Of a stretch of DNA of 64,000 nt, positions 1 to 37,521 are shown in pieces. Below the pieces are notes generated by a model. That model was not told the DNA's origin and made no database searches. It was given only the letters and a program-made list of their open reading frames with translations. A program made the position numbers and the translations under genes. The first letter of the stretch is position 1. The number at the start of each line of letters is the position of its first letter. This stretch comes from Candidatus Latescibacterota bacterium (GTDB lineage: Bacteria > Latescibacterota > UBA2968). Where the stretch lies: assembly GCA_965207885.1 (NCBI GenBank), contig OZ242311.1, positions 608,001-672,000 on the forward strand. The letters are read 5' to 3'.

Positions 1-67
1 CATCGCGGCATGATCCCCTGCTCAACACCACGCAGGGGCATGGTTGAGCCGCGATCCAGAAGGTTTT
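1..67 (+). repeat. REP-like palindromic repeat (catcgcggc...gccgcgatccagaaggtttt family), composite copy with internal hairpin
   Basis: Same motif recurs at 30347, 45883, 47403, 52399 and 57266, always intergenic and in the same orientation. Confidence 0.8.
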
Positions 68-89
68 TACTGATCGTGGAGAATGACAG

Positions 90-1139
90 ATGTTGAGAAA
101 AGATGTTGAGTCGGCCCTAAAGAAAGGGCAGGTGATTCCCGCACATCCGCTGGCTCTGACCGCGGAGCGGAAGTTGGATGCACGACGACAGCAGGCGTTG
201 TCGCGCTATTATATTGCTGCTGGTGCGGGGGGCCTGGCCGTGGGGGTGCATACCACGCAATTTGAAATTCGCGATCCCAAATGGGATTTGTACCGGCCCG
301 TTCTGGAACTGGCTGCGTGTGTGATGGATGCCGATGCACCGGCTGATTTTATCCGCGTGGCGGGCATTGTGGGGAATACGCGACAGGCGGTGGCAGAGGC
401 AGAGGTTGCGCGTGATTGCGGCTATGAGGTCGGGTTGGTGAGTTTGCGTGCTTTTGCCAATGCGAGTGTCGATGCGATGGTTGCACATTGCCGCGCCATA
501 GCCGATGTGATTCCGGTGATGGGGTTTTATCTGCAGCCGGCTGTGGGAGGATGTGTGTTGCCGTTTGATTTTTGGCGGCGTTTTGCAGAGATTGAGTCTG
601 TGGTGGGTATTAAGATCGCGCCTTTTAATCGGTATCAGACGCTGGATGTGATTCGCGGGGTTGTGGCGGCGGGACGGGTGGAGGATATTACGCTTTATAC
701 GGGGAATGACGATAATATTGTGATGGATTTGCTGACGTCGCATCGGTTTGTGTGCGATGGCGCGTGTGTGGATGTGCGTATTGTGGGTGGGCTTTTGGGG
801 CATTGGGCGGTGTGGACAAAGAAGGCGGTGGAAATTTTGAGGGCGTGTCACGAGATTGCGAAACTGGATGCTGTGCCGCAAGAGATGCTGACGCGGGCGA
901 TTGAGGTGACGGATTGCAATGCGGCGCTTTTTGATGTGGCAAATGATTTTCACGGATGTATTGCCGGCGTTCACGAGGTGTTGCGAAGGCAGGGGCTTTT
1001 GGAGGGTGTGTGGTGTTTGAATCCGGAAGAGGGTCTGTCGCCGGGACAAATGGAGGAGATTGACCGCGTGTATGCCGCTTATCCGCATTTGAACGACGAC
1101 GATTTTGTGGCGGAGCATTTAGATGCGTGGTTGCGGTGA
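90..1139 (+). CDS. Dihydrodipicolinate synthase (DapA)-like class I aldolase/dehydratase
   Basis: IPAHPLAL, VGVHTTQFEIR, GFYLQPAVGG, Schiff-base GIKIAPF, LYTGNDD motifs. Confidence 0.85.
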   Translation: MLRKDVESALKKGQVIPAHPLALTAERKLDARRQQALSRYYIAAGAGGLAVGVHTTQFEIRDPKWDLYRPVLELAACVMDADAPADFIRVAGIVGNTRQAVAEAEVARDCGYEVGLVSLRAFANASVDAMVAHCRAIADVIPVMGFYLQPAVGGCVLPFDFWRRFAEIESVVGIKIAPFNRYQTLDVIRGVVAAGRVEDITLYTGNDDNIVMDLLTSHRFVCDGACVDVRIVGGLLGHWAVWTKKAVEILRACHEIAKLDAVPQEMLTRAIEVTDCNAALFDVANDFHGCIAGVHEVLRRQGLLEGVWCLNPEEGLSPGQMEEIDRVYAAYPHLNDDDFVAEHLDAWLR

Positions 1140-1247
1140 GGCGAGGGCTGAATTTTGTTGACTTGCAAGGTGTCGCTGTGCATGATGAGTGATCTGAGAT
1201 GAAATTGAAGTTCGAGAATGGTAATTTTTAATTGAAGGAGGTTTGCC

Positions 1248-2657
1248 GTGAAGATGCATATTGGTGGTCAATGGGTGGATAAGGCCGAGAAGATCGATGT
1301 GATCAATCCATTTGACAATTCGGTGGTGGATACGGTGCCAAAAGGCGATGCAGCAGATGCGGAGGTGGCGATTGCGACGGCTGTGCGCGGTGCCAAAGCG
1401 ATGGCGGCTTTGACGGCTTATGAGCGGTATGAGATTTTGCATCGGGCTGTGAATTTGATGCAGGATCGGGTTGAGGATTTGGGGCGCACGATTACGCTGG
1501 AAGAGGGCAAGGTTCTGGCTGAGGGTATCGGCGAGGCCGGGCGGGCGATTGAGACGATGACGCTGTCTGCTGAGGAGGCGAAGCGGTTGTACGGCGAGAC
1601 CATTCCGCTGGATGGCGGTTCGGGTGTGCGCGATCAGTTTGGTTTTACGCTGCGCGTGCCGTGTGGGGTGGTGCTGGCGATTACGCCGTTTAATTTTCCC
1701 CTGAATCTGGTGTGTCACAAGGTGGGTCCTGCACTGGCTGCGGGCAATGCCGTGATTGTGAAGCCGGCTACGGATACGCCGCTTTCGGCGCTGAAGCTGG
1801 TGGAGATTCTGGTGGAGGCCGGTGTGCCTGCCGAGGCTGTGCAGTGTATTACGGGTCCGGGGAATGAATTGGGCCATGCGCTGTGTTCGGATACCCGCGT
1901 GCGCAAGATCAGTTTTACGGGTAGCCGCGATGTGGGGGAAGAGATTTGCAATATGGCGGGGTTGAAGAAGGTGACGATGGAACTCGGGTCCAATGCGCCT
2001 TTGATTGTGATGCCCGATGCGGATCTGGATCAGGTGGCTGCTGCGACGGCGACGACGGGTTTTGCCAATGCCGGGCAGGTATGCATTTCAGCGCAGCGGG
2101 TGATTGTCAATGATGCGGTTTACGGCGATTTTATCGATGCATTGACGCCAAAGGTCGAGGCGCTGACGACGGGCGATCCCATTGCTGATGGCGTGACGAT
2201 GGGTCCGATGGTGAGGGAGCGCGATGCCGTGCGCGTGCAGGCGTGGATTCAGGATGCGGTGGGGGCTGGCGCGCGTCTGGTAACGGGCGGCGATCGCGAT
2301 GGTGCGATTTATCAGCCGACGATTCTCGCCGATGTGGATCCGAGTATGAAGATTTCATGCGATGAGTTGTTTGGGCCTGCGGTGGGTATTACGCGGTTTG
2401 ACGATATCGACGCTGCTATTGAGATGGCCAATGATACGAATTACGGTTTGAGTGCGGCACTGTTTACAGAGAATATCCACTGGGCGATGCGGTTTGCGCG
2501 GGAAGTCCATTCGGGCAATATTCACGTCAATTGGGGTACGCAGTGGCGCGCGGATTTGATGCCCTATGGCGGTCTGAAGGATAGTGGGATGGGCAAGGAG
2601 GGACCGAAGTACGCGGTGGAGGAGATGACGGAGACGAAGATGGTGGTGTTTCATTAA
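1248..2657 (+). CDS. NAD(P)-dependent aldehyde dehydrogenase
   Basis: ITPFNFP, FTGS, MELGSN, catalytic GQVC, ELFGP, YGGLKDSG; SD GGAGG upstream. Confidence 0.95.
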   Translation: MKMHIGGQWVDKAEKIDVINPFDNSVVDTVPKGDAADAEVAIATAVRGAKAMAALTAYERYEILHRAVNLMQDRVEDLGRTITLEEGKVLAEGIGEAGRAIETMTLSAEEAKRLYGETIPLDGGSGVRDQFGFTLRVPCGVVLAITPFNFPLNLVCHKVGPALAAGNAVIVKPATDTPLSALKLVEILVEAGVPAEAVQCITGPGNELGHALCSDTRVRKISFTGSRDVGEEICNMAGLKKVTMELGSNAPLIVMPDADLDQVAAATATTGFANAGQVCISAQRVIVNDAVYGDFIDALTPKVEALTTGDPIADGVTMGPMVRERDAVRVQAWIQDAVGAGARLVTGGDRDGAIYQPTILADVDPSMKISCDELFGPAVGITRFDDIDAAIEMANDTNYGLSAALFTENIHWAMRFAREVHSGNIHVNWGTQWRADLMPYGGLKDSGMGKEGPKYAVEEMTETKMVVFH

Positions 2658-2672
2658 AGTTGTTTGTAAGAG

Positions 2673-2699
2673 GGGTGCGTACTTGAGGTACGCACCTCA
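2673..2699 (+). terminator. Hairpin downstream of aldehyde dehydrogenase
   Basis: ggtgcgtac-ttgag-gtacgcacc stem; no clear U-tract. Confidence 0.45.
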
Positions 2700-2717
2700 T
2701 TAAAAGGACGGTTTGGA

Positions 2718-3056
2718 ATGGCTCTTACGGATCGAGATTTGAGCATCGCAAATGAATTAAAAAATAGGCTGCTCTCGATAGATGAGGAACATCGAATCCG
2801 CAAGGTTATTTTGTACGGTTCTCGCGCTCGGGGAACGGCCAATGTCAATAGTGATTATGACATTCTGGTGATTGAAAAAGATCCGGTGGCAAAACGAGAT
2901 GAAATGTATCGTTTCCGCCAGGCATTGCGTTCTTTACCCTGCGAATTGGACTTGTGGGTTATGGGAAGTCGAGAATTTGAAGAAACCAAAGAAATTATCG
3001 GCGGAATGGCATTCCCTGCTCACAAATACGGTCAGGTTCTTTATGAGATCTCCTGA
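2718..3056 (+). CDS. Minimal nucleotidyltransferase (MNT) antitoxin
   Basis: LYGSRARG...SDYDI motif; overlaps HEPN gene. Confidence 0.9.
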   Translation: MALTDRDLSIANELKNRLLSIDEEHRIRKVILYGSRARGTANVNSDYDILVIEKDPVAKRDEMYRFRQALRSLPCELDLWVMGSREFEETKEIIGGMAFPAHKYGQVLYEIS

Positions 3057-3480
3057 GCAAGTTCAATGGGATTTTGTACAGCAGTGGCTGGATAAGGCGG
3101 AGAATGATCTGAAAGCAACGGAAATACTTTTGAAGAGTGATCTGAAAAGTTTTGAGACTATAGGATTTCACGCACAACAGTCAGCAGAGAAATTCATCAA
3201 AGCCTTCTTGGTGCGTCATCAAGTAGAATTTCCCAAAACACACGATATTTCGAAATTGAGAAATCTGGTACTCAAAATTGATCAGTCAATATCTCTAAAA
3301 TTAGAACCCGCAGATGCACTAACGCCTTATGGTGTCGAATTTCGCTATCCTGGAGATTTCGATCTTAACCACCAACAGGCTGCAACAGCTTTTCAACTTG
3401 CAAAACGGGTTAAGCGGGTCATTATGAACCATTTAAAATCATACCTGGCGCAAGGAAGACCAATTGATCCAGAAGAATGA
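3043..3480 (+). CDS. HEPN domain protein (MNT-HEPN toxin-antitoxin pair)
   Basis: WLDKAENDL, FHAQQSAEK, PKTHDI, RYP; ATG at 3043 overlaps MNT end (track ORF starts at 2872). Confidence 0.9.
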   Translation: MRSPEQVQWDFVQQWLDKAENDLKATEILLKSDLKSFETIGFHAQQSAEKFIKAFLVRHQVEFPKTHDISKLRNLVLKIDQSISLKLEPADALTPYGVEFRYPGDFDLNHQQAATAFQLAKRVKRVIMNHLKSYLAQGRPIDPEE

Positions 3481-3610
3481 AACTAAAACTCAGGGAAATT
3501 CGCGGGATGAACTCGCCCGGGATATTAAAGAGGCGAATCGAGAGTTTCGAGAGGGAAAGGCTCTGCCAACAACGCCCGATGATCTCATGAAAGAGATTAC
3601 ATCGCGATGA
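3464..3610 (+). pseudogene. Truncated antitoxin-like ORF
   Basis: RDELARDIKEANREFREGKALPTTPDDLMKEI resembles C-termini of small type II antitoxins; no toxin follows. Confidence 0.45.
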
Positions 3611-3707
3611 GATATATTGATATGGAAAACGGCTCCTTTATTAAGGAGCCGTTTTTTTGCTATGGAACATTTGGATTCAACTGCTAATCCGGCATACACG
3701 TATGCCA

Positions 3708-5015
3708 TCACCAGACCTGTCTCATTACCAGACCGTCGCACGGTGCTCCGCAGTGTTGTGCGAGCAGGCCGAACTGAAGATGGAAACCGGCGGCGCGTGC
3801 CTTCTCCCAGGCCGCTGGCGACCACAGGCCCTCGGGCCAGGAAAACCAGGGAATGTGGTCCCGATCCTCAACTGCTTCGGCAAGGTCCGTCAGTTCCTCT
3901 CCAAGCCTATCCCGTTTTGTCAAATCCTCGTGGTGGTGGCCATGTGTCGCAATAATCCAACCTTCGGACTTCATATATTTGATGTCCCCGGCGTTCAGCA
4001 ACCACTCCGGGTCCCGCATTGAGGCGACGCCGAGTCCATCCAAAGCGGCGTGTTGATCTGCCTCGGGCAATGTCTTCAATCCCGTTCGGGTCACGCCGCT
4101 GAGTGCTGATCCGCTTTCAGGATCAAGACCGTGTTCAGCACAGTGCTGGTAGAGGCGCTGCAACGGCAGGGGGCGTACGGATTCACCAAAATGGTTCTCG
4201 CCCACGAACAGGACCGGGCACAGGTAGGCTAAATTTTTAAAGGTGTCCGAGAGGTGCATCACGTCCTTCCAGCCATCATCGAATGTGACCAGGGCTACGG
4301 TCTCGGCATTCTTTTTGCGGTTCCACGCCTCAACCCTGCTATTCAATTGCGCCAGACGCCGTATAAGGTCGGATTTTTCAATAGACATGCCATAGCGAAG
4401 ATGTACTTGATGTGATTCGGTGAGTGCGCCATCGTGTACGCGATGCAACGCCGGTACTCCATGGGGATAAAAACCGCTGTTCGCCCGGCCCGCGAAGACG
4501 CCTTTGGGCCGAAGGCGCGTTGCCCACGCCACCACTTCATCTACTGTATCACATCCCGTAATGGTGAATTTTCCACGGCGATGGTCCAGGGCGGCACCAG
4601 CCAGTTTCTCGCTCCAACCGCCCGAAGTTTGTAGCGAGGCGATTGGCTTTCCCTCTTGCCAAGCCACCGCCATCTCGCTCAAGGTGCCCGAGCCGCCCGA
4701 TACAGCGACGATGAGGTCGGCAGAACGCACCACCAGATGATTTCTCATTGAGCCGAGGCCGGTGCGAACGATGCTCGCCGGATGCGGATTTCGCTCCCAA
4801 GCGCGTCCCCAGCCAGGCTCAATGTGAATGAGATTTGTGGAGCCTGTCGAATGTCCGTGGCCCCTCGCCGCGGCGCGCATGACACCATCCATCCCGCCCG
4901 TTACAATATCGAAGCCAGCGTTTCCGAGCGCACATGTCAGTGCCTCCACCATATGTCGGAGTTCGGGTGATATGACGCCCGCCGAGCCAATGATCGCAAC
5001 GATGTTCCGCCTCAT
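3708..5015 (-). CDS. SLOG/LOG-family (TIGR00725-like) domain fused to NodB-type polysaccharide deacetylase
   Basis: N-term VTGGMDGVMRAA, RNHLVV, GGSGTLSE; C-term LVTFDDG, HGHHH, SWPEG; 4-bp overlap with upstream gene. Confidence 0.85.
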   Translation of the reverse strand: MRRNIVAIIGSAGVISPELRHMVEALTCALGNAGFDIVTGGMDGVMRAAARGHGHSTGSTNLIHIEPGWGRAWERNPHPASIVRTGLGSMRNHLVVRSADLIVAVSGGSGTLSEMAVAWQEGKPIASLQTSGGWSEKLAGAALDHRRGKFTITGCDTVDEVVAWATRLRPKGVFAGRANSGFYPHGVPALHRVHDGALTESHQVHLRYGMSIEKSDLIRRLAQLNSRVEAWNRKKNAETVALVTFDDGWKDVMHLSDTFKNLAYLCPVLFVGENHFGESVRPLPLQRLYQHCAEHGLDPESGSALSGVTRTGLKTLPEADQHAALDGLGVASMRDPEWLLNAGDIKYMKSEGWIIATHGHHHEDLTKRDRLGEELTDLAEAVEDRDHIPWFSWPEGLWSPAAWEKARAAGFHLQFGLLAQHCGAPCDGLVMRQVW

Positions 5016-8000
5016 CGCCGCCTCCCGGCCAGTGATGGCTTGGCGACAATGCGTGCGATAATTGCCTCGCGAACCTCTCGATCATTCCCTTTTCCCACGC
5101 CCGATGGCTCGTACAGATAGAGGGGTTCTGAGATGTGTACGGGTTTCTCGGCCATCTCTACAATCGGCAACATGTACGCCCAATCGTTGGGAATATCGAT
5201 GTATTCCCCGTCGAGCCGCAAGGCGTCGTCCGGAATGGCATCGAAAAGATATTTCTTGAATGATCGCAGATGCTGCCAGACATTGCCGCCACCCCGCCGC
5301 TCGCGTGACCGGTCAAAACATACGGGATAGTCCTTTGCCTTGTCGGTTCGCAACATCGATCCGACAGTCACATCAGCCCCTCTTGCGTATTCCGTCGCCA
5401 GTCGCGCCAAGACTCGGTCACCGATCAAGGCGTCGTCCGCGTCGAGCGTAACGATGACTGAGTCAGGATTCGTGCATACTGTCCTGATGGCGGTCACCAT
5501 ATTGGCCAGCAATCCCCGGCGATGCCGGTTGCGAATGATCGTGCAACGCTCCCTGAGTGCTTCCCAGGCACTGTCCAAATGTTCGGCGAATATCACATCC
5601 GAGGCGTCGTCAAAAACTACCGTCCCCCATCGTTCGTCTTTTTGCCGGAGCATAGATTCGATACAACGACGAAGCCTGCCCGCCGGTACATTACGCCCCG
5701 AGACCACAAAGACGAATGGCTCGCGTCGGTTCGGTTTCATCCAATCAGCATAGGTTCCGGTCAAATCACACTTGCCTTTCTGAACATCCGGCACTGCACC
5801 ATGTTCGACGCGATCGAGCACGGCGAACCACTCCTCAATGTTGCGCTTGCGCGTATTGGGCGGATGGATATAGAAAGTCCGACGATCACCGCCGCGATAA
5901 GATCTACCTGCGCCGGTACGAATTGCCAGATCCAAAGCCCTGTACCAGGTGCGTGCCAAACGACCTTCATGGAGCCAGTTTGGCAATGGCCGTGCATCGC
6001 GGAGTCTATCGAGATTGATCAGTCCGGCGCGTACTTCTGTACGCCAGGGGGCAGACTGATCACTCGCGGTGTTGGTGTAGGGTCGGTCATGCGCCATCGC
6101 AATGTTAAACGATACGGTAAGTGCCTTGGGATCATCTGCCATCACTGCCAGAATGTCGGCCAGATAATCGTGGGTACGATCCAGTCTGCCGATCAGGACA
6201 TCGGCATCCAACTGAAGAACGTATCGCGTCTTGCAGGCCTCGAATCCCTTGAGTGTCGAAGCGATTTGAGGCCCACTTGCTACATGCGCTTTTGGACAGG
6301 GAACCCCGAACCATCTCTGGTGCAAAAGGGCTGTCGTCTCGCCATCATCAGGGCCATTGACGATTCGGTCAATCCACCCGGCTTCAACCAGGCGGTGCGC
6401 CGCGTTACGCAGATCGCGCAGGTTTCCATTGGCGTATTGTCGGAGGAATCCGTTCTCGCGGGAGTCAAGCACCAGAAGTCGCTCTGAAAACGCCCTCGGT
6501 TCTTCCAGTTGCGAAATGATATGGCGAACCTGTATATCGAGCGTATCTGCTTCCATGGCACACGCCTTGATCATCAAGGTGACTTCGCCGGAGAGTGGTG
6601 CCATAGGCCTGAGTTCGTATGCCAACTGCTCTGAAGCGGGTTCGAATCGCTCCAAATCAACCGTTGGTACTTCCACTCGTCGGCAGATCGCCAGACCCGC
6701 ACGAGCAAATTCGCGCCGTAACGTCCGTTCGGGCCGATGTGCGTGGCGGCGCACCCGACCCGTTGCGCGTAGTTTTTTTTCATATACGAAAGTGCTCTCG
6801 TATTGGGCACCGTCCGGCAGATCGTGATCGGCCTCCGGAGTCGAGCCTCCAAATTTGAAATGCGGATCGCACATTGTCACGATAACCCGACCGCGCTCGG
6901 TTACCAGGGTCCGCAGATCACCGAGAATTGTTTGCAATTCTGTATCATTCTCAATGGTGCATAACACGCGACGACACACCGCGATATCGAACAGTTCAGC
7001 TTTCAGCAGGTCGCTCCGCTCATGCGTAAACCGCAGATTGTCTTTTCCCTGGCAAAGCAAATTCCAGTGTGGTCGGCGCGTGTAATCGGGATCGTAGCCC
7101 AAAATCTGCATCCCCCGATCTGCGAACTCTTTGGACAGCCACCCGTTCCCACAACCATAGTCGAGGACGCGCCCAGCCTGTCCAACCATTTCGAGAACGA
7201 CGTCTTCTTGGGCTTTATGTTGCCCCGTCACTCTGCGAACCGCTTCGTAAAACCAATCAAATCCGTCAAGTTCAGGTATTTCTGGATTATCCAATGCTCT
7301 GCGTGCAATTTTTTTGAAATTGGTGGAGCCGCGGTTCGCCCAGCGATACGATAGATAAGCTCGCTGACACATCTTTACAAATTCGCGCTTCCTGTCAAAC
7401 TTTTCACCTTCTGGAGGGTGGATGTCCGAATGGATGTCTGAGCCGTAATCGATTAATCGCACCCGCCCATCTACTACCCGCAGATTGTTGGGATCAATGT
7501 TGCGGTGGAAAATGCCATGCCGCCAACATTCAGCGAGGAGTGTGACCATGCCCGGTCCATATCCACCGGCGTACGGTTCACTCTCCTCGAATGGATAGAT
7601 CAGTACCGCACGATGTCCAGATTCATGGAAACTGAGGATTGGATATAGACAGTGCGTATCATTATAGGCACCAACGAGGGTACGCAGAAAGGCGGGGGCA
7701 GTAACTTCAGGCGACGATTTCCACCAGTAATCGAATACTTTAAAAACGTGCTTCCCATCGCTGAGGGCCACGCCTTCCTTACCTGATCCCAATACTTTGA
7801 GCGATCCAGCGGGTGCGGCCAGCCGCGCAGCGATGGCCTTGGCATTTGCTCTTCGCTCGCCCTCGAGTCCGCGGCTGGCCAGGGTTTCATAGTTCGAGAG
7901 CCTTTTCCGATGTTGTTTAATCTCTATCGGCAGTTGCCGCAAAAACTTACAGATTTGGCGAATATTCAGTGCTCTGGCTTCGCGTTCGATGCGGTTCAAC

Positions 8001-10288
8001 TTATCCACTTCGTAGCAATCAGTTAGGTGATCAGAGAACGTTCGGAGTTGCTTGATCGCGGCTCGATACTTCTTGTCTTCTCTCCACCAGACCTCCTTTT
8101 TATCCGCGAGGCATCGCAGGATACGCGTTAGGCCGCGGATGCGATGAAAAGAAAGGCGAAACGCCGACAACCGTTCTTCGACATATTTGCCCACGCATGC
8201 GACGAAGTCTTCGGTCATTTCCTCAGACAGTACGAGGCTCAGGTCATCTGTTTTTGTAAAAATGCCTGGAAAATCCTGGAGTGCCGAGAACATCCCATAG
8301 CCGCGAATATCATCAACGATACGCTCGATATCCAACTCGCCAACGGGTAGGTGGGATCGGTCGTGATACAGGGCAATCGGCACGGTGACGATATGGCGAT
8401 TGAAATAGTGTTTTTGTAGCAGTGCCCATATCATGTCAGAGCGACGGCTCGGCCGCTCGTCAATGGTTGGTGAGGAGTTGGGTGCCAGTCTCAGTGCTTC
8501 GACGTCAAACACGAAGGTATTACCGCCACGCTGAAGATCGTCACTGATCGATTCTAAGGGATTGATACCATTCTCAATCGCAAGGGGCCGGAAGACTTGT
8601 TCACCGGCCAGTATGCGCTCGGCTGCGCTGGCGATGCGAGTGAATGCCTCTGCAACGGTTTCTTTGGGAAATGCTGGAGTAATCCAGAACGGCATTTCTA
8701 ACTGATCGGTTTTTTTGCGCGACAGATCGTAATAGTAGTCGCACTGACCGACTCGCAGTGTCGCGTTCTCCAAGCCGCGGTCCGGCAAGACAGCCTGCGA
8801 ATCCTGGGTCGCCAGCCAATGCAGCGATGCAACCAGATCAACGAGTTGAACCCGTACGGTCGCCGCAAACGGTAGCGGAGGCGCACCAGTGTACGCTCCG
8901 AAGACAATATCGACAACACGGCTGGCGCGAAGCCGCCGAAGCTCCCGTAGCAATGGTACGAGTTCTTGGGCACGCCGCTGCAACTCGCCGTTTTCGTCAA
9001 TGACGAGCGGATCTAAGCGCATATCGTCATCCACGATCCACACTATTGATCCGGGCCGGTTCTTGCCGAACGCATACAGATACGTCTGTAGCACCGTTCG
9101 GGCGTCGGCTATGAACAATTTTCTACCATGGCTTGCGCCGCGGTCAAGAACCAGTCCACTCCTGGAATCTTCAATATGCTGTTCGCGATCTACAAGATGG
9201 ATACGCAGGCCAAGATTGCGCTCATTCTCGACGAGGTTCCGCAAATCTTCACAGGATGTCTGATCGCAACCGTTCTCTAAAATCAGGACATCAAGGCCCG
9301 ACAGCCCGGGATCCTCGGCGAGTCCGCGAAGGTCGACGAGTAGATGGCGAATCGCTTCGGGTTGCGCCGTGTCGACGATCATGCCGACGATCAGATGGGG
9401 TGGAGATTGGCGTGGTGCTGCCCCCTCTATACGAGATGACGCAACGCGGCGTGCTGGCATATTTATGGTAAGCTCAAACGCCGATTCGTTTATCCCGAAC
9501 AATCGCTCAGCGCGCGTCCAGAACTCTGTACGCTGAGCATTGGACATGCGGCCGCGGTACTTGCGGAAGAATCGGATGAGTCCCCCGGTTTTTGCTGGCG
9601 ATCCCGGTGTTGACAACCGAGGCCGCGACTGGGAGGCGAAATGATGAACCGTTGGCTCGGTAGTAATGCCGTAGCGCACGCCGGGCAATTCTGCGATGCG
9701 GATGCACAGATCGCGGTCCGTACAACTCGGCAACGATTCGTCGAACAGGCCAGCTTCGAGTAGGACGCTCAACCGGCACACGAGGTTGCTGCCCTGGATT
9801 CCCGGATTTCCCACCAGAAAACTCGCCACTTCGAGTGATCGCGGCGGAACTATCAACTGCGCCTCGGCGTTCTCCTCAATCCGCTGGAACGGTGCCGCTA
9901 CCATGTCGAGACCATGGTTTTTGGCGGCTTCCAAACATCTCTTCAGATGGCGCGGGTCCCAACGGTCATCGTCGTCCAGGATCGCAACATAGAGTTGTGT
10001 GGGGTCGTTGCACGTCCGAAGCAGATGATCCAGGCCGGAGTTCCACGCCCCAGCCGCTCCTTTCGTGCGACGGTTGCGAAGAAAATCCACGTTGATGCCA
10101 GCCGGTTGCCAATTGCGTACCAATTGTTCAGACCGCTCAGCGTCATCGTCACCCGAGTCATCAACCACGATTACCCGCGATGGCGTCCGGTATTGGTTTT
10201 TGATAGAGGGAAGAGCCCGAGCCTTCAAGAGGTCGGTTCGGTGGGCTGTGGCGACAAGAACTGCCACGGTACTTTTTGAAGAATACAT
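5012..10288 (-). CDS. Giant multidomain protein: GT2 + GT-A-like + kinase-like + SAM methyltransferase + GT-A-like + GT2
   Basis: VVDDS/ILDDDD; WIVDDD; LGSGKEG..FK..HRNIDPNN..IDYG; LDYGCGNG; LQLDAD; VFDDAS/TLDADD; SD AGGAGG. Confidence 0.85.
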   Translation of the reverse strand: MYSSKSTVAVLVATAHRTDLLKARALPSIKNQYRTPSRVIVVDDSGDDDAERSEQLVRNWQPAGINVDFLRNRRTKGAAGAWNSGLDHLLRTCNDPTQLYVAILDDDDRWDPRHLKRCLEAAKNHGLDMVAAPFQRIEENAEAQLIVPPRSLEVASFLVGNPGIQGSNLVCRLSVLLEAGLFDESLPSCTDRDLCIRIAELPGVRYGITTEPTVHHFASQSRPRLSTPGSPAKTGGLIRFFRKYRGRMSNAQRTEFWTRAERLFGINESAFELTINMPARRVASSRIEGAAPRQSPPHLIVGMIVDTAQPEAIRHLLVDLRGLAEDPGLSGLDVLILENGCDQTSCEDLRNLVENERNLGLRIHLVDREQHIEDSRSGLVLDRGASHGRKLFIADARTVLQTYLYAFGKNRPGSIVWIVDDDMRLDPLVIDENGELQRRAQELVPLLRELRRLRASRVVDIVFGAYTGAPPLPFAATVRVQLVDLVASLHWLATQDSQAVLPDRGLENATLRVGQCDYYYDLSRKKTDQLEMPFWITPAFPKETVAEAFTRIASAAERILAGEQVFRPLAIENGINPLESISDDLQRGGNTFVFDVEALRLAPNSSPTIDERPSRRSDMIWALLQKHYFNRHIVTVPIALYHDRSHLPVGELDIERIVDDIRGYGMFSALQDFPGIFTKTDDLSLVLSEEMTEDFVACVGKYVEERLSAFRLSFHRIRGLTRILRCLADKKEVWWREDKKYRAAIKQLRTFSDHLTDCYEVDKLNRIEREARALNIRQICKFLRQLPIEIKQHRKRLSNYETLASRGLEGERRANAKAIAARLAAPAGSLKVLGSGKEGVALSDGKHVFKVFDYWWKSSPEVTAPAFLRTLVGAYNDTHCLYPILSFHESGHRAVLIYPFEESEPYAGGYGPGMVTLLAECWRHGIFHRNIDPNNLRVVDGRVRLIDYGSDIHSDIHPPEGEKFDRKREFVKMCQRAYLSYRWANRGSTNFKKIARRALDNPEIPELDGFDWFYEAVRRVTGQHKAQEDVVLEMVGQAGRVLDYGCGNGWLSKEFADRGMQILGYDPDYTRRPHWNLLCQGKDNLRFTHERSDLLKAELFDIAVCRRVLCTIENDTELQTILGDLRTLVTERGRVIVTMCDPHFKFGGSTPEADHDLPDGAQYESTFVYEKKLRATGRVRRHAHRPERTLRREFARAGLAICRRVEVPTVDLERFEPASEQLAYELRPMAPLSGEVTLMIKACAMEADTLDIQVRHIISQLEEPRAFSERLLVLDSRENGFLRQYANGNLRDLRNAAHRLVEAGWIDRIVNGPDDGETTALLHQRWFGVPCPKAHVASGPQIASTLKGFEACKTRYVLQLDADVLIGRLDRTHDYLADILAVMADDPKALTVSFNIAMAHDRPYTNTASDQSAPWRTEVRAGLINLDRLRDARPLPNWLHEGRLARTWYRALDLAIRTGAGRSYRGGDRRTFYIHPPNTRKRNIEEWFAVLDRVEHGAVPDVQKGKCDLTGTYADWMKPNRREPFVFVVSGRNVPAGRLRRCIESMLRQKDERWGTVVFDDASDVIFAEHLDSAWEALRERCTIIRNRHRRGLLANMVTAIRTVCTNPDSVIVTLDADDALIGDRVLARLATEYARGADVTVGSMLRTDKAKDYPVCFDRSRERRGGGNVWQHLRSFKKYLFDAIPDDALRLDGEYIDIPNDWAYMLPIVEMAEKPVHISEPLYLYEPSGVGKGNDREVREAIIARIVAKPSLAGRRR

Positions 10289-10516
10289 CTTTTCCTCCTA
10301 TGATGTCAAGGAGTGATTAACTACATATCATCCGTCCACCAAGAGCAGAAGAGCTTTCGACTGGCGTCGAGTCTGGAGGAAATATCTACATCATAAGAAT
10401 CTCTTTCAGGCCACACTCAACCGTCTCGTGCGGTTAGATGATATGACGAATGAAAAAAGAATAGAGAAAGCCAGGTAGATTGGCAAGTGTTTTTTAGATT
10501 ATATGCATATCTGCGC

Positions 10517-12055
10517 TCAATCTTCCACGGGTCCAGCATAAGGCGCGTGTTCGAATCGACAGGGCGATTCGACGAGGCGTGGGTCGCTTTGTTCGCGCAG
10601 GATTTGCATGAGTGTGGTGGAGAGTTCTTTGCGGATGGGGTCGTATTCGGGGTCGGCGGCGATGTTGTTCATGTAGTGCGGGTCCACGCGCAGGTCGTAG
10701 AGTTCTTCCTGGGGACGTTTGCCAAAGCCGATTTCGAATAGTTCCTGTACGTCTTGTTCTGCGCGGTGGAGGATCATATAGGATTTTGTGGGGCTGGCAT
10801 CCATGTCGGGATAGGCGATGAAGGTTTTCCCTGTCAGGTCTTCAGCCGAGGGGGCTTCTGCATGGAGGTCGTCGAGTCCTTGAGGATCGCCCATGGGCCA
10901 GCGGTCGGGTGCAAAGTTGTGGATGTAGAGAAAGTCGGCCGTGCGGATGGCGCGTTGCGGGTAGGGTAGCTGGCCTTCTCTTGCGGTGCCAACGTGCCGT
11001 TCCCGGCCGGTGATGACAAAGGTGCGGTCGGGATCGACCAGGCCGCTCTGGTCGCTTTTGAGAACGGGGAGCAGGCTTTTGCCGGTCATGGTATCGGGGA
11101 TGTCTGCGCCTGCGGCTTCGAGGAATGTGGGGGCGAGGTCCATGAGGTTGACAAAGTCTTCAACGGTGCGTCCCGCAGGGATGTTGTTGGGCCAGCGCGC
11201 GGCGAGGGTGACTTCACAGCCGATGTCGTAGAGGTTGCATTTGCCGCGTGGAAAGCCCGGTATGCCGTGGTCGCCGCTGACGACGATGAGGGTGTTGTCG
11301 AGTTCGCCGATTTCTTCGAGGCGCTGGATCAAGACGCCCAGGCCAGCGTCAACGGCCTGACATTCGCCCAGGTAGTCGGCTACGTCTTCGCGGATGTCGT
11401 GTACATCGGGGAGGAAGTCGGGTAAGCGGCCTTTGAGGTCGTCGGGTTCTAAACCCCACACAGCTTTGCCGGAGCCGCGTTCCCAGGAGCGGTGGGTGTT
11501 GGTGGGTCCCCACCAGTAGCAGAAGGGTGTGTTCTCTGGACGGGCGTCGAGGAATGCGTTGAAGTTGTCGCGGGTTTCGTTCAGGAGGGCTTGTTTGGCG
11601 CCTTCAACGCCCAGTTCATCGGCGTTTTTGGTTACCCAGTGGGAGAATCTGCGGTAGTTGTTGCCGGCAGATTCATAGCGGGTTCGGTCGGCGCCATACG
11701 GTGCGTTGGCGGCTTTTCCGGGGGACCAGACTTTGTAGGTATAGCCGATGTGGTATCCGGCTTTTTCGAGTTCGAGGGGGTAGGTGGGGATGCTTTCGTC
11801 CCATATCGCACCTTGTAAGATGGCGCCGAGGCCGGTTTGCCAGAAGTATTGTCCAGAGAGGATGGCGCTTCGGCAGGGGGTGCAACTCGGCGCGGGTACA
11901 AAGGCGTTGGTGAATAACGCGCCTTCGCGGGCGATGCGGTCAAAGTTGGGGGTGTCGATGAGGTGATTGAGAGAGTTGGGGCCTTCAATGCGCTGATAAG
12001 CACTGGCATAACGCCCCCAGTCGTCGGCAAAAGCAAAGAGGATGTTGGGTTGCAT
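10517..12055 (-). CDS. Formylglycine-dependent sulfatase
   Basis: PNILFAFADD, CTPCR (CxPxR), GDHG, ELYDLRVDP. Confidence 0.95.
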   Translation of the reverse strand: MQPNILFAFADDWGRYASAYQRIEGPNSLNHLIDTPNFDRIAREGALFTNAFVPAPSCTPCRSAILSGQYFWQTGLGAILQGAIWDESIPTYPLELEKAGYHIGYTYKVWSPGKAANAPYGADRTRYESAGNNYRRFSHWVTKNADELGVEGAKQALLNETRDNFNAFLDARPENTPFCYWWGPTNTHRSWERGSGKAVWGLEPDDLKGRLPDFLPDVHDIREDVADYLGECQAVDAGLGVLIQRLEEIGELDNTLIVVSGDHGIPGFPRGKCNLYDIGCEVTLAARWPNNIPAGRTVEDFVNLMDLAPTFLEAAGADIPDTMTGKSLLPVLKSDQSGLVDPDRTFVITGRERHVGTAREGQLPYPQRAIRTADFLYIHNFAPDRWPMGDPQGLDDLHAEAPSAEDLTGKTFIAYPDMDASPTKSYMILHRAEQDVQELFEIGFGKRPQEELYDLRVDPHYMNNIAADPEYDPIRKELSTTLMQILREQSDPRLVESPCRFEHAPYAGPVED

Positions 12056-12088
12056 GGGTTCTCCATTTTTGGTGTGGATGTTGAAAGT

Positions 12089-13435
12089 CTATTTCAGTGT
12101 CGCGTATTTGGCCGCGCCTTCGCCTGCGATGAGGCCATACGCGAGGCCCATGCACAGGCCGCCTGTGTAGCCCCGGGTGTAGATGCCGCCGCAATCGGCA
12201 CCGGCTGCGTAGAGGCCCGGGATGGGGTGGTCGTTTTTGTTCAGGACTTGTGCCTGGGCATTGACTTTGGCTCCGCCGTAGGTAAAGGTGATGCCGGGGC
12301 GTGTGCGGATGGCGTAATAGGGCGGTGTGTTGAGGGGGATGAGGCCGCCGGTTTTTGGTATTGAGAGGGTTTGGCCGTTGCCTGTGGCGCATGCGGTTGC
12401 GTATTCGGCCATTGTTTTTTCGAATGTGTGGGCAGGGATGTGCCAGCGATTGGTCAATGCGCGGGTGAGTTCTTCAAGGGATGGTGTTTCGATGACTTCG
12501 CCGCCTGCTTCGCGGATGTTTTTGACGCGGTCGTTGTCCGGGGTGGGCCATTGGGAGAGTGCGTTCTGGTTGTCGCGGATGTGCTGGTCAAAGATGAGTA
12601 TGGCGGTGGCCTGGGGTTGTTGGACGAGGGTGTGGCAGGTGACTTCGTCGCCGAGATATTCGTCGTCGAATCGCTGGCCTTTGAGGTTGATTAAGATGGC
12701 GTATTCGCTGAAGTCGGGTTTGACTTTGAGGAAGTTGTGCAGGCCGACTCGTGCGGGTGGTGCGGGAAGGAGGTGGCCGTAGAAGCGGTTGAGGGGTCCT
12801 GTGGATTGCGCCCCTGCTTCGAGTGCGCTTTGAAAGCCGCCGCCGGTGTTTTGGGGTACGCCGCGGACGATCATGTGATCGGATTCTGCGCCGAAGTATT
12901 GCGCGCGCAATTTGGGGTTGGCCTGATATCCGCCGGTTGATAGGATGACGGATTGGGCTGTTATTTCTTTATGTGTGGTTTTGACGCCTGTGATAGGTTT
13001 GCCGCTGCCGCCGATGAGGCCGGTCAGGCCAGTGTGTGTGAGGATGGTACCGCCCCTGTGCTGGAACTGATAGCCGAGGATTTCCATTGCGGTGCGCGCA
13101 TCGGGTGTGAACTGGTAGATGGTGCGTTGAAATTTGTACGGTTTGTCTTCGCGCGCTTGTAGGGATACGCCCTGTTTGCGGAGCCATTCGATGCCTGTGT
13201 CGAAGCGGTCGATGAGCGCGGTGCCGAGTGCGGTGTCGCCATTGGGCTGCACTTTGAGCCATTCGTCGATGTTTTTTGCACACCAGATGGTGCCGCCCGA
13301 TGCGGCTGCAGATCCGCCGATTGTTTCGGCTTTTTCGATGATGGCTACGGATGCGCCTTTTTCCCGAGCGCGCAACGCCGCACACAATCCACCTATGCCC
13401 GCGCCCGCTACTATGACGTCGTAATGGTCAGACAT
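12089..13435 (-). CDS. FAD-binding oxidoreductase (FAD_binding_2; TcuA/KstD/fumarate reductase-like)
   Basis: GAGIGG, STGGY, TFTYGG, GLYAAG; start set at MSDHYDV after an SD. Confidence 0.85.
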   Translation of the reverse strand: MSDHYDVIVAGAGIGGLCAALRAREKGASVAIIEKAETIGGSAAASGGTIWCAKNIDEWLKVQPNGDTALGTALIDRFDTGIEWLRKQGVSLQAREDKPYKFQRTIYQFTPDARTAMEILGYQFQHRGGTILTHTGLTGLIGGSGKPITGVKTTHKEITAQSVILSTGGYQANPKLRAQYFGAESDHMIVRGVPQNTGGGFQSALEAGAQSTGPLNRFYGHLLPAPPARVGLHNFLKVKPDFSEYAILINLKGQRFDDEYLGDEVTCHTLVQQPQATAILIFDQHIRDNQNALSQWPTPDNDRVKNIREAGGEVIETPSLEELTRALTNRWHIPAHTFEKTMAEYATACATGNGQTLSIPKTGGLIPLNTPPYYAIRTRPGITFTYGGAKVNAQAQVLNKNDHPIPGLYAAGADCGGIYTRGYTGGLCMGLAYGLIAGEGAAKYATLK

Positions 13436-13595
13436 CCTATTTCTCCTGTGAATATCAGGATGCATCCTATTGAGAGGAAGAAGATAATATTACCATTCGA
13501 GTAGCGGAATAGTTTCCTCTTCTCTTATAAGTGGAACATGAGTACGCACATCCCAGGGAAGAATCTGATGATCCGAAATATATGAAGCCCGGAAA

Positions 13596-15146: not shown

Positions 15147-15171
15147 AGGCGGATCCTTATTTTTTCACATC

Positions 15172-15201
15172 AAAAAAGCCTCGTAAACACACGAGGCTTT
15201 T
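15172..15201. terminator. Bidirectional intrinsic terminator
   Basis: aaaaagcctcgt-aaacac-acgaggcttttt. Confidence 0.8.
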
Positions 15202-15228
15202 GATTTTTGGCTATAAGTTAATAATGAC

Positions 15229-15417
15229 TCATCTTCCCACCGGTTGCCCCAGGATCCAATGCGTTTTTGCAGACCTTTTTTCCCAATCCAAAAAATTCTT
15301 AAGAGCCTGTTTTTCTTCGGGGGTCAACTCAAGGTCTTCGGGTTTGGGAGTGCGAAGAAATATGGTTTGAGGTGTCTGTTGTGTAACGGGTTCATTTTGG
15401 GACTGGCTTTGGGACAT
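15229..15417 (-). CDS. 62-aa hypothetical peptide upstream of the peptidase
   Basis: SD GGAGGAG before ATG 15417; MSQSQSQNEP...HWILGQPVGR. Confidence 0.6.
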   Translation of the reverse strand: MSQSQSQNEPVTQQTPQTIFLRTPKPEDLELTPEEKQALKNFLDWEKRSAKTHWILGQPVGR

Positions 15418-15572
15418 AACTCTCCTCCGGTTACAATGAAAAACAGAACTACTCAAACAAGATGATTTTGAAACAATGTCAACATAAACTTGACAAATAT
15501 AAGCAAAAAATTCGCTTGAACAAACCAAAAGTTATAATAAAAAAAATAATTCCACAGAAATTGATTGCTAAG

Positions 15573-15836: not shown

Positions 15837-15910
15837 TGAGATACTCCTTCAGAGCACAAACAAATTTATTGGCCTTACTACGCAAATTTCGCTGTCTGAA
15901 GTTCAAGATT

Positions 15911-37516: not shown

Positions 37517-37521
37517 ACGCC

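Follow-up and report, generated by a model that had tools for sequence, protein, structure and literature searches.

A horizontally mobile two-gene cassette encoding a multi-domain glycosyltransferase megaprotein and a SLOG–NodB partner in a sponge-associated Candidatus Latescibacterota bacterium

Klebsiella pneumoniae O7 ORF6 and Escherichia coli O9a WbdD/WbdA are ABC-transporter-dependent polymerase-terminators of O-antigen. The WbdD/WbdA complex reportedly combines GT2-type transferases, a methyltransferase and a kinase-type domain. The genes for K4CP and PmHS2 are found in capsule loci together with exporters. O7 ORF6 is described as comprising a methyltransferase, a kinase, a coiled coil and two GT2 modules, with an activity that requires D441 (PMC11231755). 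Enzymes of family GT75 are described as using a DDD motif and a nucleophilic Arg to act on NDP-sugars, and the conserved Arg is autoglycosylated in members of this family, a reaction given in the same account as uncharacterised among bacterial members (PMC9937993).

The locus described here is an inserted two-gene cassette, self-contained and horizontally mobile, in a sponge-associated Candidatus Latescibacterota bacterium. Within the 64-kb window, the whole stretch of DNA that was analysed, the insertion spans 6.86 kb (3659..10520, no strand assigned) and comprises exactly two genes, both encoding soluble proteins, in keeping with the proposed self-contained pair. Its limits are defined by the empty site in three genomes of the same genus (G020, G002 and G012), where the sequences corresponding to window positions 70–3658 and 10521–13469 adjoin with a gap of 9–13 bp, and the flanks are otherwise collinear at 93–95% identity. 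Because the insertion consists of the two genes alone relative to all three empty sites, the sulfatase and FAD genes belong to the ordinary flank. The cassette starts immediately after the terminator hairpin of a flanking HEPN gene (3626..3658, plus strand), its GC content is 0.551 compared with 0.524 and 0.587 in the flanks, and no target-site duplication was seen at its boundaries.

The two predicted open reading frames were recovered on the minus strand: the megaprotein gene P0001 (5012..10288, 1,758 amino acids) and the SLOG–NodB fusion gene P0002 (3708..5015, 435 amino acids). At the junction (5012..5015, minus strand), which reads ...CGGCGATGAGGCGG..., the stop codon TGA and the start codon ATG overlap as ATGA, 5 nt downstream of GGGAGG, and the SLOG–NodB gene is translationally coupled to the megaprotein gene. 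Peak 19-residue hydropathy values of the two proteins are 1.26 and 1.30; since neither has a window above 1.6, the megaprotein is soluble and both proteins look cytoplasmic, as had been proposed.

The megaprotein is encoded by a single-copy gene in its own genome and has full-length homologs of 56–81% identity. Its domain order is GT2-like, GT75/MtdL-like, kinase-like, SAM methyltransferase, GT-A and GT-A. AlphaFold models of its two halves (pLDDT of 87.2 and 86.8) contain four domains of GT-A type together with a single kinase-like domain and a single methyltransferase, the inventory originally predicted, with domain 2 resembling GT75 (MtdL) and not GT2. Pfam detects GT2 in two stretches (4.7e-31) and a class I methyltransferase, with weak matches to Pkinase and GT21. 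The acidic motifs of all four GT-A domains (DDDD105–108, D420/D422, D1361/D1363 and D1616/D1618–1619) are invariant among 22 aligned homologs.

GT-A domain 1 is composed of residues 1–280 (9449..10288, minus strand), is GT2-like by Pfam, matches PDB entry 9jma at profile level (2.2e-12) and aligns by VIA-align with WrtF, AvpGT, SpsA and TarP (Z-scores of 20–22.5). GT-A domain 3, assigned by structure alignment, comprises residues 1232–1520 (5729..6595, minus strand; Foldseek 4e-16 with 2z87), and GT-A domain 4, the second Pfam GT2 stretch, comprises residues 1522–1758 (5015..5725, minus strand; VIA-align Z-score of about 20 with WrtF, RmlT and TarP). K4CP aligns across domains 3 and 4 (model residues 406–931) with a Z-score of 21.1 over 408 residues. 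The top Foldseek matches of both halves are bifunctional polymerases, namely PmHS2 (3.4e-12), K4CP (4e-16) and LARGE1. Like these enzymes, the megaprotein carries tandem GT-A domains in one chain; however, TM-scores of 0.2–0.3 with high r.m.s.d. mean that only individual domains superpose on K4CP and PmHS2, and sequence similarity is marginal (2z86, E 9e-4).

Domain 2 (residues 295–825; 7814..9406, minus strand) has a GT-A core and a helix domain with an invariant DDD420–422, and was assigned by VIA-align, with a Z-score of 22.3 and r.m.s.d. of 3.3 over 307 residues to MtdL (7xpt; model range 292–801). It shares with the GT75 enzymes MtdL, Hyg20 and plant UAM/RGP the same fold, the helix domain included, together with the DDD motif and conserved Arg, Asp and His. 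Of 64 homologs, all retain DDD and 63 retain R479. Domain 2 differs from the GT75 enzymes in a sequence identity of 14–15%, in the absence of an HMM-level match to RGP or MtdL (no Pfam family, including the RGP model PF03214, matched the domain), and in its position inside the megaprotein. The helices of the megaprotein belong to this GT75-like fold, and it therefore has no coiled-coil ruler.

The kinase-like domain (residues 826–1020; 7229..7813, minus strand) was delimited by family profile alignment, in which xRNxxPxN...DYG aligns with HRDxKPxN...DFG of MRCK and TTK (E 1e-5). This strictly conserved ATP-site domain keeps Lys850, Asn935 and Asp947. The position of the catalytic Asp is occupied by Asn930, a replacement seen in 20 of 20 and then in 41 of 41 homologs, which makes the phosphorylated product of the original prediction doubtful. 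The methyltransferase (residues 1025–1229; 6602..7216, minus strand; Pfam Methyltransf_23, 2.1e-13) is closest to small-molecule methyltransferases, with VIA-align Z-scores of 21.8 to ToxA (5jdz) and 21.7 to XrdM; WbdD matches it only at E 7e-4.

The megaprotein resembles O7 ORF6, as described, in joining GT2-type transferases, a methyltransferase and a kinase-type domain in one polypeptide, and differs in the Asn that its family carries where O7 ORF6 needs D441 (PMC11231755). It departs from both O7 ORF6 and WbdD in its domain order, in having no separate coiled coil, in its SLOG or GTP cyclohydrolase II partners and in its genomic setting: a wzm/wzt locus was found at none of 26 genome loci, nor in the window. 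In agreement with the noted lack of an adjacent ABC exporter, no ABC-2 exporter lies in the window, and over 580 kb separates the cassette from the closest PF01061 match elsewhere in the genome; ABC-2 permeases are encoded at seven other places in the genome. Neither a lipid-carrier primer nor a membrane protein travels with the megaprotein gene at the 26 loci or in the window.

The partner P0002, with near-full-length relatives in 103 clusters, was predicted to be a LOG/TIGR00725-like SLOG–NodB fusion. Both domains are confirmed: SLOG (LDcluster4, LOG-like; Pfam 1.2e-26) in residues 5–136 (4608..5003, minus strand), and a NodB/CE4 deacetylase (Polysacc_deac_1, 4.6e-8, above the cut-off) in about residues 225–435 (3711..4343, minus strand). 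Assignment to TIGR00725 itself fails, the score of 71.6 bits being below the equivalog cut-off of 106.9. The GGxGTLSE, RN and GWS motifs are the same in all 12 partners, and a GGxGTxxE-type motif and PDB profile matches (1rcu, 2.5e-26; Moco carrier protein, 3.1e-17; LOG enzymes, 9e-11) link the domain to LOG phosphoribohydrolases, TIGR00725 and the Moco carrier protein, from which it differs in its fusion to a CE4 deacetylase and in its coupling or fusion to a glycosyltransferase megaprotein. The best solved relative, 1rcu, is without known function, and the SLOG domain could be a sensor or carrier instead of an enzyme. In the NodB half, TFDDG and HxxxH are kept in seven of eight fusion partners; NodB is fused to the megaprotein in 5 of 35 representatives scanned, and is a facultative module.

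The cassette family is common to very distant microbes, across phyla, and to plasmids, proviruses and phages. SLOG directly follows the megaprotein gene at 19 of 22 informative type I metagenome loci and accompanies it in all three viral-contig homologs (in L061 as an in-frame fusion) and at 11 of 25 informative genome loci. Conservation of the partner, on which the original reading depends, holds broadly but not within the closest, sponge-type clade, about half of which has no SLOG and an intact megaprotein gene; no P0002 homolog was found anywhere in five such genomes. At 44 of 80 metagenome loci a sister operon combines a GT2–(kinase-like)–domain 2 protein with GTP cyclohydrolase II; of these 44, 36 also have an Asn-synthase-like gene and 32 an arylamine N-acetyltransferase (NAT). 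A plasmid of Pseudoalteromonas donghaensis carries an annotated copy of this operon, and in the P0258 representative domain 2 is fused to GTP cyclohydrolase II and NADAR. SLOG and GTP cyclohydrolase II never occur together (0/44 and 0/23), and the replacement of one by the other lends support to the nucleotide-centred idea of the original prediction. As the cassette in this window has neither GTP cyclohydrolase II nor NAT, its own nucleotide link comes through SLOG alone.

Our preferred reading, held tentatively and at a little under even chances, is that of a cytoplasmic line that starts from a nucleotide-derived acceptor and builds on it a glycoside, which is methylated and partly deacetylated. 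SLOG, whose solved relatives include LOG phosphoribohydrolases and the Moco carrier protein, would supply, bind or trim a purine-nucleotide-derived acceptor, with GTP cyclohydrolase II as its counterpart in the sister operon. Domain 2 would change the ring form of an NDP-sugar, or create an N-glycosidic link, via its conserved Arg/Asp site; three GT-A domains would add a short sugar run, NodB would deacetylate an N-acetylated amino sugar and the methyltransferase would cap the product. The kinase-like domain may bind ATP for a step without a general base, or regulate. The resulting soluble decorated glycoside would serve conflict with phages or competitors, or act towards the sponge host. The product is probably new, and an exported polysaccharide is probably not what the cassette builds. 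The missing sequence-level link between domain 2 and GT75 and the SLOG-less members of the closest clade count against this reading, as do the polymerase matches of both GT-A pairs and the polysaccharide-typical neighbours at homolog loci (NodB, NAD-epimerase, UDP-glucose-dehydrogenase-like and sulfotransferase genes).

The last two observations instead favour a portable polysaccharide polymerase-terminator, the main rival, which we regard as unlikely yet deserving of serious weight. Here undecaprenyl diphosphate would carry a repeat polymer made by the two K4CP-like GT-A pairs, which the methyltransferase, phosphate being optional, would cap in the manner of WbdD or O7 ORF6, while NodB would de-N-acetylate the chain and unlinked host machinery, for which the distant ABC-2 permeases are candidates, would export it; the new surface glycan would change recognition by phages or host. 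The resemblance in domain inventory to O7 ORF6, as described (PMC11231755), fits this scheme. Against it stand an insertion limited to two soluble proteins, the lack of wzm/wzt, a primer or a co-travelling membrane protein at the 26 genome loci and in the window, helices that form a GT75-like fold in place of a ruler, the missing catalytic Asp, and conserved partners that are nucleotide enzymes. The GT75-like fold also suggests protein-primed or protein-directed glycosylation, in which domain 2 would attach sugar to an Arg of its own or of a target, in the way of GT75 reversibly glycosylated polypeptides, and the other GT-A domains would then extend the glycan. The invariant DDD, several invariant Arg residues, a cassette free of lipid or exporter genes and the described Arg autoglycosylation of GT75 members are consistent with this; we nevertheless judge it improbable, as that reaction is reported as uncharacterised in bacterial members (PMC9937993), no sequence membership of domain 2 in GT75 was found, R479 is no more than a putative counterpart of MtdL Arg159, and the SLOG and GTP cyclohydrolase II partners go unexplained.

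Modification of DNA or the nucleotide pool in phage–host conflict, with sugars placed on bases or nucleotides and SLOG, a DprA relative, engaging nucleic acid, is very improbable. A megaprotein–SLOG fusion of 27% identity does occur in a temperate-phage contig, between replication/methyltransferase genes and ParB–methyltransferase, HNH and small terminase genes; the SLOG ORF of provirus L059 matches a DprA-like PHROG (1.6e-8); and defence genes are frequent neighbours. However, the cassette adjoins an integrase in proviruses L059 and L060, as cargo would, no match was found among 50,697 deposited phage genomes, and the cassette contains no base-exchange enzyme, hydroxymethylase, DNA-binding domain or paired restriction component. 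The suggested DNA substrate finds no support. As to the proposed defence role, PADLOC families are unmatched by either protein save for a weak match to the methyltransferase domain, and defence-island enrichment is borderline (raw p 0.05) and suggestive only.

Three sponge metatranscriptome libraries, all from one study, yielded contigs that cover 3806–10435 at 95–99% identity, and one of these contigs bridges the gene junction, with DNA carry-over possible in both cases. Upstream of the megaprotein gene, within the cassette, lies a promoter-like site (TTGCCA-17-TATTCT, 9/12 matches; 10458..10486, minus strand), and the RNA-library contigs stop at 10427–10439 (three runs, one study), a weak hint regarding this site.

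The two minus-strand open reading frames of the original prediction were found exactly where it had placed them: the megaprotein gene at 5012..10288, encoding 1758 residues, and the gene of its partner, a 435-residue fusion of a SLOG and a NodB domain, at 3708..5015. The stop codon of the first and the start codon of the second share an ATGA, preceded by a Shine-Dalgarno-like GGGAGG (junction in minus-strand read: ...GGGAGGCGGCGATGAGG...). A 19-residue hydrophobic window scoring above 1.6 occurs in neither protein. The megaprotein of this operon type, hereafter type I, comprises in order the GT-A domain GT1, domain 2 (residues 295-825), helices, a kinase-like domain, a methyltransferase, and the GT-A domains GT3 and GT4. 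Pfam detected GT2 in two stretches (4.7e-31) and a class I methyltransferase (2.1e-13), together with weak Pkinase and GT21 signals. Alignment of 22 homologues (34-81% identical) shows the acidic motifs of all four GT-A domains to be invariant, along with the SAM motif, an ATP-site signature and the methyltransferase residues D1043, G1045, G1047 and D1066.

The megaprotein was modelled as two halves from alignments (residues 1-830, pLDDT 87.2 and pTM 0.89; residues 826-1758, pLDDT 86.8 and pTM 0.85). For both halves the top-ranked Foldseek matches are bifunctional polymerases (PmHS2, 3.4e-12; K4CP, 1.2e-11 and 4e-16; LARGE1), with TM-scores of only 0.2-0.3, so that single domains match and the domain arrangement does not. 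VIA-align places residues 5-270 on WrtF, AvpGT, SpsA and TarP (Z 20-22.5), residues 1025-1229 on ToxA and XrdM-type methyltransferases (Z 21.8), residues 1231-1756 on K4CP (Z 21.1, 408 residues aligned) and residues 1522-1756 on WrtF, RmlT and TarP (Z about 20).

Domain 2, for which there is no Pfam model, is predicted to adopt the GT-A, core and helix-domain fold of the GT75 mutases, its residues 295-801 aligning with the NDP-pyranose mutase MtdL (Z 22.3, r.m.s.d. 3.3, 307 of 375 residues with PDB entry 7xpt; VIA-align, model range 292-801). This match spans helices 689-801, which are therefore read as the GT75 helix domain, and the interpretation of helices 689-824 as a coiled-coil ruler was set aside. 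GT75 enzymes carry a DDD motif for metal and diphosphate and an Arg nucleophile, which plant members autoglycosylate (PMC9937993). The motif is present in domain 2 as DDD420-422, kept in 64 of 64 relatives; R567, R587-G-G and R615-R616-x-D618 are likewise kept in 64/64, R479 in 63/64 and H642 in 60/64. Candidates for the counterparts of the nucleophile Arg159 and the base Asp260 of MtdL are R479 and a number of invariant Asp and Arg residues. The predicted link to GT75 is one of fold, with the DDD motif, and not of sequence family: the Pfam scan of the megaprotein gave no RGP match, PF03214 (Pfam RGP) had no match in the window's genome at E up to 10, and the domain-2 profile found no chain with E below 0.26 among PDB sequences. 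A search with the same profile recovers 655 representative clusters, of which 297 reach an E value of 1e-30 or better.

The kinase-like domain aligns to Hanks-type kinases (family profile, E 1e-5), with 'ivcRNlhPdNlrv...liDyGs' of the family placed on 'yvHRDIKPDNILM...LADFGS' of MRCK; an alignment with TTK was also obtained. The Gly-rich loop LGxGxEGV, K850, N935 and D947, all features of Hanks-type kinases, are kept in 41 of 41 homologues. The catalytic Asp of the HRD motif is replaced by Asn, at position 930, in 20 of 20 homologues from genome loci and by Asn in 41 of 41 from metagenomes, the latter covering type I and a sister operon with GTP cyclohydrolase II (type II); the Pfam Pkinase model scores 12.8 bits, below its cut-off of 31.7. 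Judged by this conservation, the site is a strictly conserved altered site and not a decayed one. The substitution does not support ordinary phosphotransfer with a general base and weakens the analogy of a methyl-phosphate cap with the O-antigen polymerase-terminators WbdD and Klebsiella O7 ORF6; the phosphorylated product of the original prediction is doubtful. In O7 ORF6 the equivalent Asp, D441, is needed for activity (PMC11231755). O7 ORF6 and WbdD resemble the cassette in composition alone, which includes the SAM methyltransferase, whereas the catalytic Asp and the wzm/wzt context are missing in the cassette and its helices are read as GT75-like.

The partner has two domains. The first matches the Pfam LDcluster4 SLOG model (1.2e-26; 93.6 bits against a cut-off of 26.3) and scores below the cut-offs of NCBIfam TIGR00725 (71.6 against 106.9 bits) and of the NCBIfam LOG equivalog (21.6 against 300). 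A GGxGTLSE motif, which conforms to GGxGTxxE, the RN upstream of it and a GWS are invariant in 12 of 12 aligned partners; PGGxGTxxE is the signature motif of LOG. The second domain matches Polysacc_deac_1 (4.6e-8; 33.5 bits against a cut-off of 23.1) and keeps TFDDG and HxxxH in seven of eight fusion partners, the one at locus L006 being degenerate; Asp-Asp and His-His are the metal and catalytic motifs of CE4/NodB deacetylases. Among solved structures, the partner profile matches 1rcu, which has no known function (2.5e-26), and 6y01 (3.6e-21), as well as the Moco carrier protein (3.1e-17) and LOG phosphoribohydrolases (9e-11 and weaker). The fusion family comprises 103 clusters, named in the source only 'polysaccharide deacetylase family' or 'TIGR00725 family'. 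The best ESM Atlas feature score (0.75) denotes a deacetylase cluster and is uninformative, and a complex prediction of domain 2 (residues 290-830) with the partner gave a score of 0.00, which speaks neither for nor against pairing.

Comparison of window positions 1-20000 with 20 genomes of the same genus revealed an empty site in three of them (G020, G002 and G012), where 70-3658 directly abuts 10521-13469 with a gap of 9-13 bp and 93-95% identity. Alignment of the filled and empty sites delimits the cassette to 3659-10520, directly adjoining the HEPN terminator hairpin, and shows no target duplication; the cassette contains neither an integrase nor a third gene. The insertion brings exactly the megaprotein and its partner, which bears out the proposal of a self-contained two-gene unit. 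The flanks encode a DHDPS-like protein, an aldehyde dehydrogenase and an MNT/HEPN pair on one side (70-3658), and a sulfatase (10517-12055) and an FAD oxidoreductase (12089-13465) on the other (10521-13469). Both the sulfatase and the FAD oxidoreductase were rejected as operon partners, each being conserved flank in same-genus genomes without the cassette (93-95% identity); neither recurs in synteny at any of the other loci. Many further relatives also lack MNT/HEPN, and the intergenic site between the aldehyde dehydrogenase and sulfatase genes is thus regarded as an indel hot spot.

Several features of this region are recorded in their own right. The toxin-antitoxin-like MNT (2718-3056)/HEPN (2872-3480) pair, at 2672-3658, is itself an indel, present in G020, G002, G012 and G015 and absent at the same site in most genomes of the genus. 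The sulfatase-family protein begins at its catalytic domain, with no signal peptide or hydrophobic N terminus, and has a 73%-identical paralogue elsewhere in the genome; a cytoplasmic sulfatase is unusual. Upstream of the sulfatase/FAD pair lies a variable island (13470-22341) comprising two PDC-S11-like genes (15911-16984 and 21250-22341, NucS-like), a second dnaB (17387-18745, 88% identical at the DNA level to the copy at G000:2131027), a PIN gene (18931-19344) with a small upstream ORF, and a DUF2779/Cas4-like gene (19705-21159). Across most of the window where the genes are on the minus strand, the plus strand has a strong and sustained GC skew, with a maximum of 0.37 (2-kb windows).

A partner-like gene is found directly downstream of the megaprotein gene in 11 of 25 informative genome loci (L008 ends too early to tell), as the full fusion in seven (60-71% identical) and as SLOG only in four. 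L016 retains a 77-residue remnant of the partner, and at L022 a transposase follows the NAT gene at the expected partner position. In none of five genomes whose megaprotein gene has no adjacent partner was a partner homologue detected anywhere. Metagenome contigs were surveyed with the domain-2 profile, which gave 80 loci, and the neighbours were typed by phmmer with a panel from our own sequences. Type I accounts for 23 of the 80, and SLOG immediately follows the megaprotein gene in 19 of the 22 that are informative; the three without it are 66-70% identical and nearest to the window's clade. SLOG is therefore taken as the ancestral, usual partner, lost repeatedly in the sponge-type clade; it is conserved across the family and absent from about half of that clade. 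The NodB domain is a facultative module, fused to SLOG in the window's cassette and to the megaprotein itself in 5 of 35 representatives scanned, which were chosen from the best 150 of the 655 domain-2 matches.

Type II accounts for 44 of the 80 metagenome loci, with 13 further loci cut by contig ends. GTP cyclohydrolase II, present in 44/44, is the defining criterion of the type. In the first protein a kinase-like domain, seen in 18 cases, stands between GT1 and domain 2, and the other genes encode an Asn-synthase-like protein (36/44), an arylamine N-acetyltransferase (32/44), an NAD-epimerase (12/44) and a UDP-glucose-dehydrogenase-like protein (3/44). The operon is recorded under metagenome loci L126-L172 and L186 and at a plasmid locus (L106:8983-15505); the same operon adjoins tra genes on a plasmid of Pseudoalteromonas donghaensis HJ51 (RefSeq annotation). 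SLOG and GTP cyclohydrolase II do not co-occur in the metagenome loci (0/44 and 0/23 for types II and I, respectively). Domain 2 is fused with GTP cyclohydrolase II and NADAR in one representative, and with Asn synthase, NAT and GT2 in two. The type II operon is widespread and apparently undescribed, and no description of the megaprotein family or of either operon was found in the literature searched, subscription journals and supplements aside.

The original prediction named homologues in ordinary wzm/wzt polysaccharide loci as one finding that would count against it, and it is sustained on this point: no wzm/wzt pair, lipid-carrier primer or co-travelling membrane protein was found in the 26 genome loci (Pfam scan of 114 + 77 ORFs) or in the window, and the nearest PF01061 match in the window's genome is more than 580 kb from the cassette. 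An ordinary Wzx-type polysaccharide cluster (32637-44652 and 49882-52278), with epimerases, GT2, GT4, a Polysacc_synt_3 flippase, YfhO and PMT_2 interleaved with his genes, lies more than 22 kb from the cassette and is kept apart from it by housekeeping and defence genes.

Defence genes are numerous among the neighbours of the megaprotein gene in the homologous loci and include Avs4, Dsr1, MkoA, BrxB, HEC-01, PrimPol, an OLD/AriA-like ATPase, and type I and type IIG restriction-modification components; defence-type genes of the window are MNT/HEPN, the two PDC-S11-like genes, PIN and, further out, WYL. A PADLOC scan of all chosen neighbours (E 1e-15 or better) matched 23 of the 175 ORFs, spread over 15 of the 26 loci, and none of the window's six nearest ORFs. 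The background, 20 random 20-kb regions taken from the window's genome only, gave matches for 7 of its 118 ORFs, in six regions. Fisher's test gave p values of 0.051 (ORFs) and 0.079 (loci), and of 0.001 and 0.011 once generic matches were dropped by our own judgement (three ABC-transporter matches among the neighbours and five generic matches in the background), with loci that are not independent, L010/L017 being one island and L018/L019 another. No defence neighbours were found in the deeper clades (L020, L021 and L023-L026). The association of the megaprotein gene with defence islands is suggestive only. Neither protein belongs to a PADLOC family: against PADLOC-DB 2.0 the megaprotein matches mad2 only, over its methyltransferase domain (1.8e-7), and the partner has no match.

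The OLD/AriA-like ABC ATPase (550-581 residues; for example, L006:7917-9647, L010:7955-9700, L017:7964-9706, L005:4691-6343 and L019:4392-6038) is near the megaprotein gene in 7 of 26 loci and is 65-83% identical across phyla. It was rejected as an obligatory third gene, given this count, its varying position and orientation, two copies that are broken or remnants, and its absence from the window. The island of L010 (Gemmatimonadota) and L017 (Latescibacterota) comprises an Avs4/PDC-M54A-like gene, the ATPase, the megaprotein gene, an HTH gene and HEC-01. In a Defluviicoccus MAG, the megaprotein gene is separated by 2.6 kb from a gene for a 1424-residue protein with NADAR and two YAcAr (YspA-type SLOG) domains (L003:17931-22205), which has a Dsr1-like SIR2 gene next to it.

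A word-index search with the megaprotein returned 571 relatives, of which the best 120 are mostly full length and 56-81% identical, and a scan of species-representative genomes gave 33 loci, 26 of them with long or full-length relatives. Relatives of 55-68% identity occur in Alpha- and Gammaproteobacteria, Latescibacterota, Poribacteria, Gemmatimonadota, Poriferihabitaceae and one unclassified bacterium; those in Roseovarius sp. A-2, a Rhodobacteraceae MAG and a Lysobacteraceae MAG are 41-42% identical, and an archaeal one 34%. In a FastTree phylogeny of 20 sequences, Gemmatimonadota fall inside Latescibacterota and Gammaproteobacteria inside Alphaproteobacteria; as far as sequence relationships tell, the family moves between phyla. 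Of 60 genomes related to that of the window, 4 carry the gene: one of the 20 from its own genus, as an N-terminal-half variant, and three of the 15 from another genus of the order. Full-length relatives are present in 3 of 47 viral-contig loci. In two (L059 and L060; 40% identity) a SLOG-only ORF lies downstream and a serine integrase is encoded 1.7 kb upstream. In the third (L061; 27% identity) SLOG is fused in frame to the megaprotein as a single 1799-residue ORF, near genes for a repressor, an integrase, an anti-repressor, a replication initiator and a DNA methyltransferase, followed by a UDP-glucose-dehydrogenase-like gene, a ParB-methyltransferase and an HNH/small-terminase gene. A tblastn search of 50,697 deposited phage genomes with the megaprotein gave no match, and relatives were found on two plasmids of cultured bacteria.

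Of 20 public runs listed for the stretch, 11 carry the label sponge metagenome and belong to 5 of the 8 studies; one sample may be the source of the DNA. The range 3806-10435 is covered, at 95-99% identity, by contigs of three metatranscriptome libraries, all from one study; one contig of 2086 nt spans the junction of the two genes, and contig ends fall at 10427-10439. These contigs are consistent with transcription of the cassette, DNA carry-over being possible. The flanks 2600-3562 and 10625-12200 are uncovered by contigs of these libraries, from which nothing is concluded, as contigs diverged by 1-5% may come from another strain with other flanks.

Domain identities, motif conservation, the autonomy of the cassette, its operon logic and its mobility are shown by the analysis, and from them we infer a substrate, an order of steps and a biological role. 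The best-supported reading, which we hold tentatively, is a cytoplasmic assembly line acting on a soluble nucleotide-derived acceptor. The main reason for placing a nucleotide-derived compound in the pathway is that two different purine-nucleotide enzymes occupy one slot beside the GT2/domain-2 core, and the fusions with GTP cyclohydrolase II and NADAR and with Asn synthase and NAT point in the same direction. SLOG would supply, bind or trim the acceptor, with GTP cyclohydrolase II in its place in type II; the GT75-like domain would reshape an NDP-sugar or form an N-glycosidic link; the three GT-A domains would add sugars; NodB would free an amine; the methyltransferase would cap the product; and the kinase-like domain would provide ATP binding without base catalysis. 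The main rival, a portable polysaccharide polymerase-terminator with unlinked export machinery, can draw on the GT-A pairs, for which K4CP and PmHS2 are the closest described systems, as the GT75 mutases are for domain 2 and LOG, TIGR00725 and the Moco carrier protein for SLOG. Sugar-nucleotide neighbours also speak for it; the altered kinase site and the missing wzm/wzt context set the cassette apart from known terminators, and we consider this rival rather unlikely. Protein-primed glycosylation appears improbable, and modification of DNA or of the nucleotide pool more improbable still.

Within the assembly-line reading, a possible though doubtful product would be a new class of soluble oligoglycosylated, methylated heterocycles derived from purine nucleotides or GTP, such as nucleoside-like or pteridine/pyrimidine glycosides. 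A LOG-like SLOG N-ribohydrolase (type I) or GTP cyclohydrolase II (type II) would provide the entry, the GT75-like domain would create or remodel the decisive glycosidic bond, and phages, plasmids and defence islands would spread the cassette, its product acting in phage-host or symbiont-host conflict. The family is large, has a central domain without a Pfam model, resides on plasmids and proviruses and is present in sponge-microbiome RNA libraries. A nucleotide-derived glycoside would imply a new biosynthetic logic, in which a transferase megaprotein includes a GT75-like domain, a kinase fold is conserved though it lacks the catalytic base, and SLOG and GTP cyclohydrolase II are interchangeable as entry steps; it could also lead to bioactive or antiviral molecules of a new family. 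A polysaccharide product would make the cassette a portable glycan module of minimal size, with two genes. The family can be tested in cultured carriers (Roseovarius sp. A-2, Pseudoalteromonas donghaensis HJ51 and Salinivibrio kushneri TGB19).

In a split variant (L005:12418-19152 and L009:6265-14068; also L022 and G018), the gene for an 811-residue N-terminal half, made up of GT1 and domain 2, precedes genes for a sulfotransferase, an M20 peptidase, a PhyH dioxygenase, an arylamine NAT, SLOG-NodB and an NAD-epimerase. The combination of deacetylase and sulfotransferase in this variant is reminiscent of N-deacetylase/N-sulfotransferase logic.
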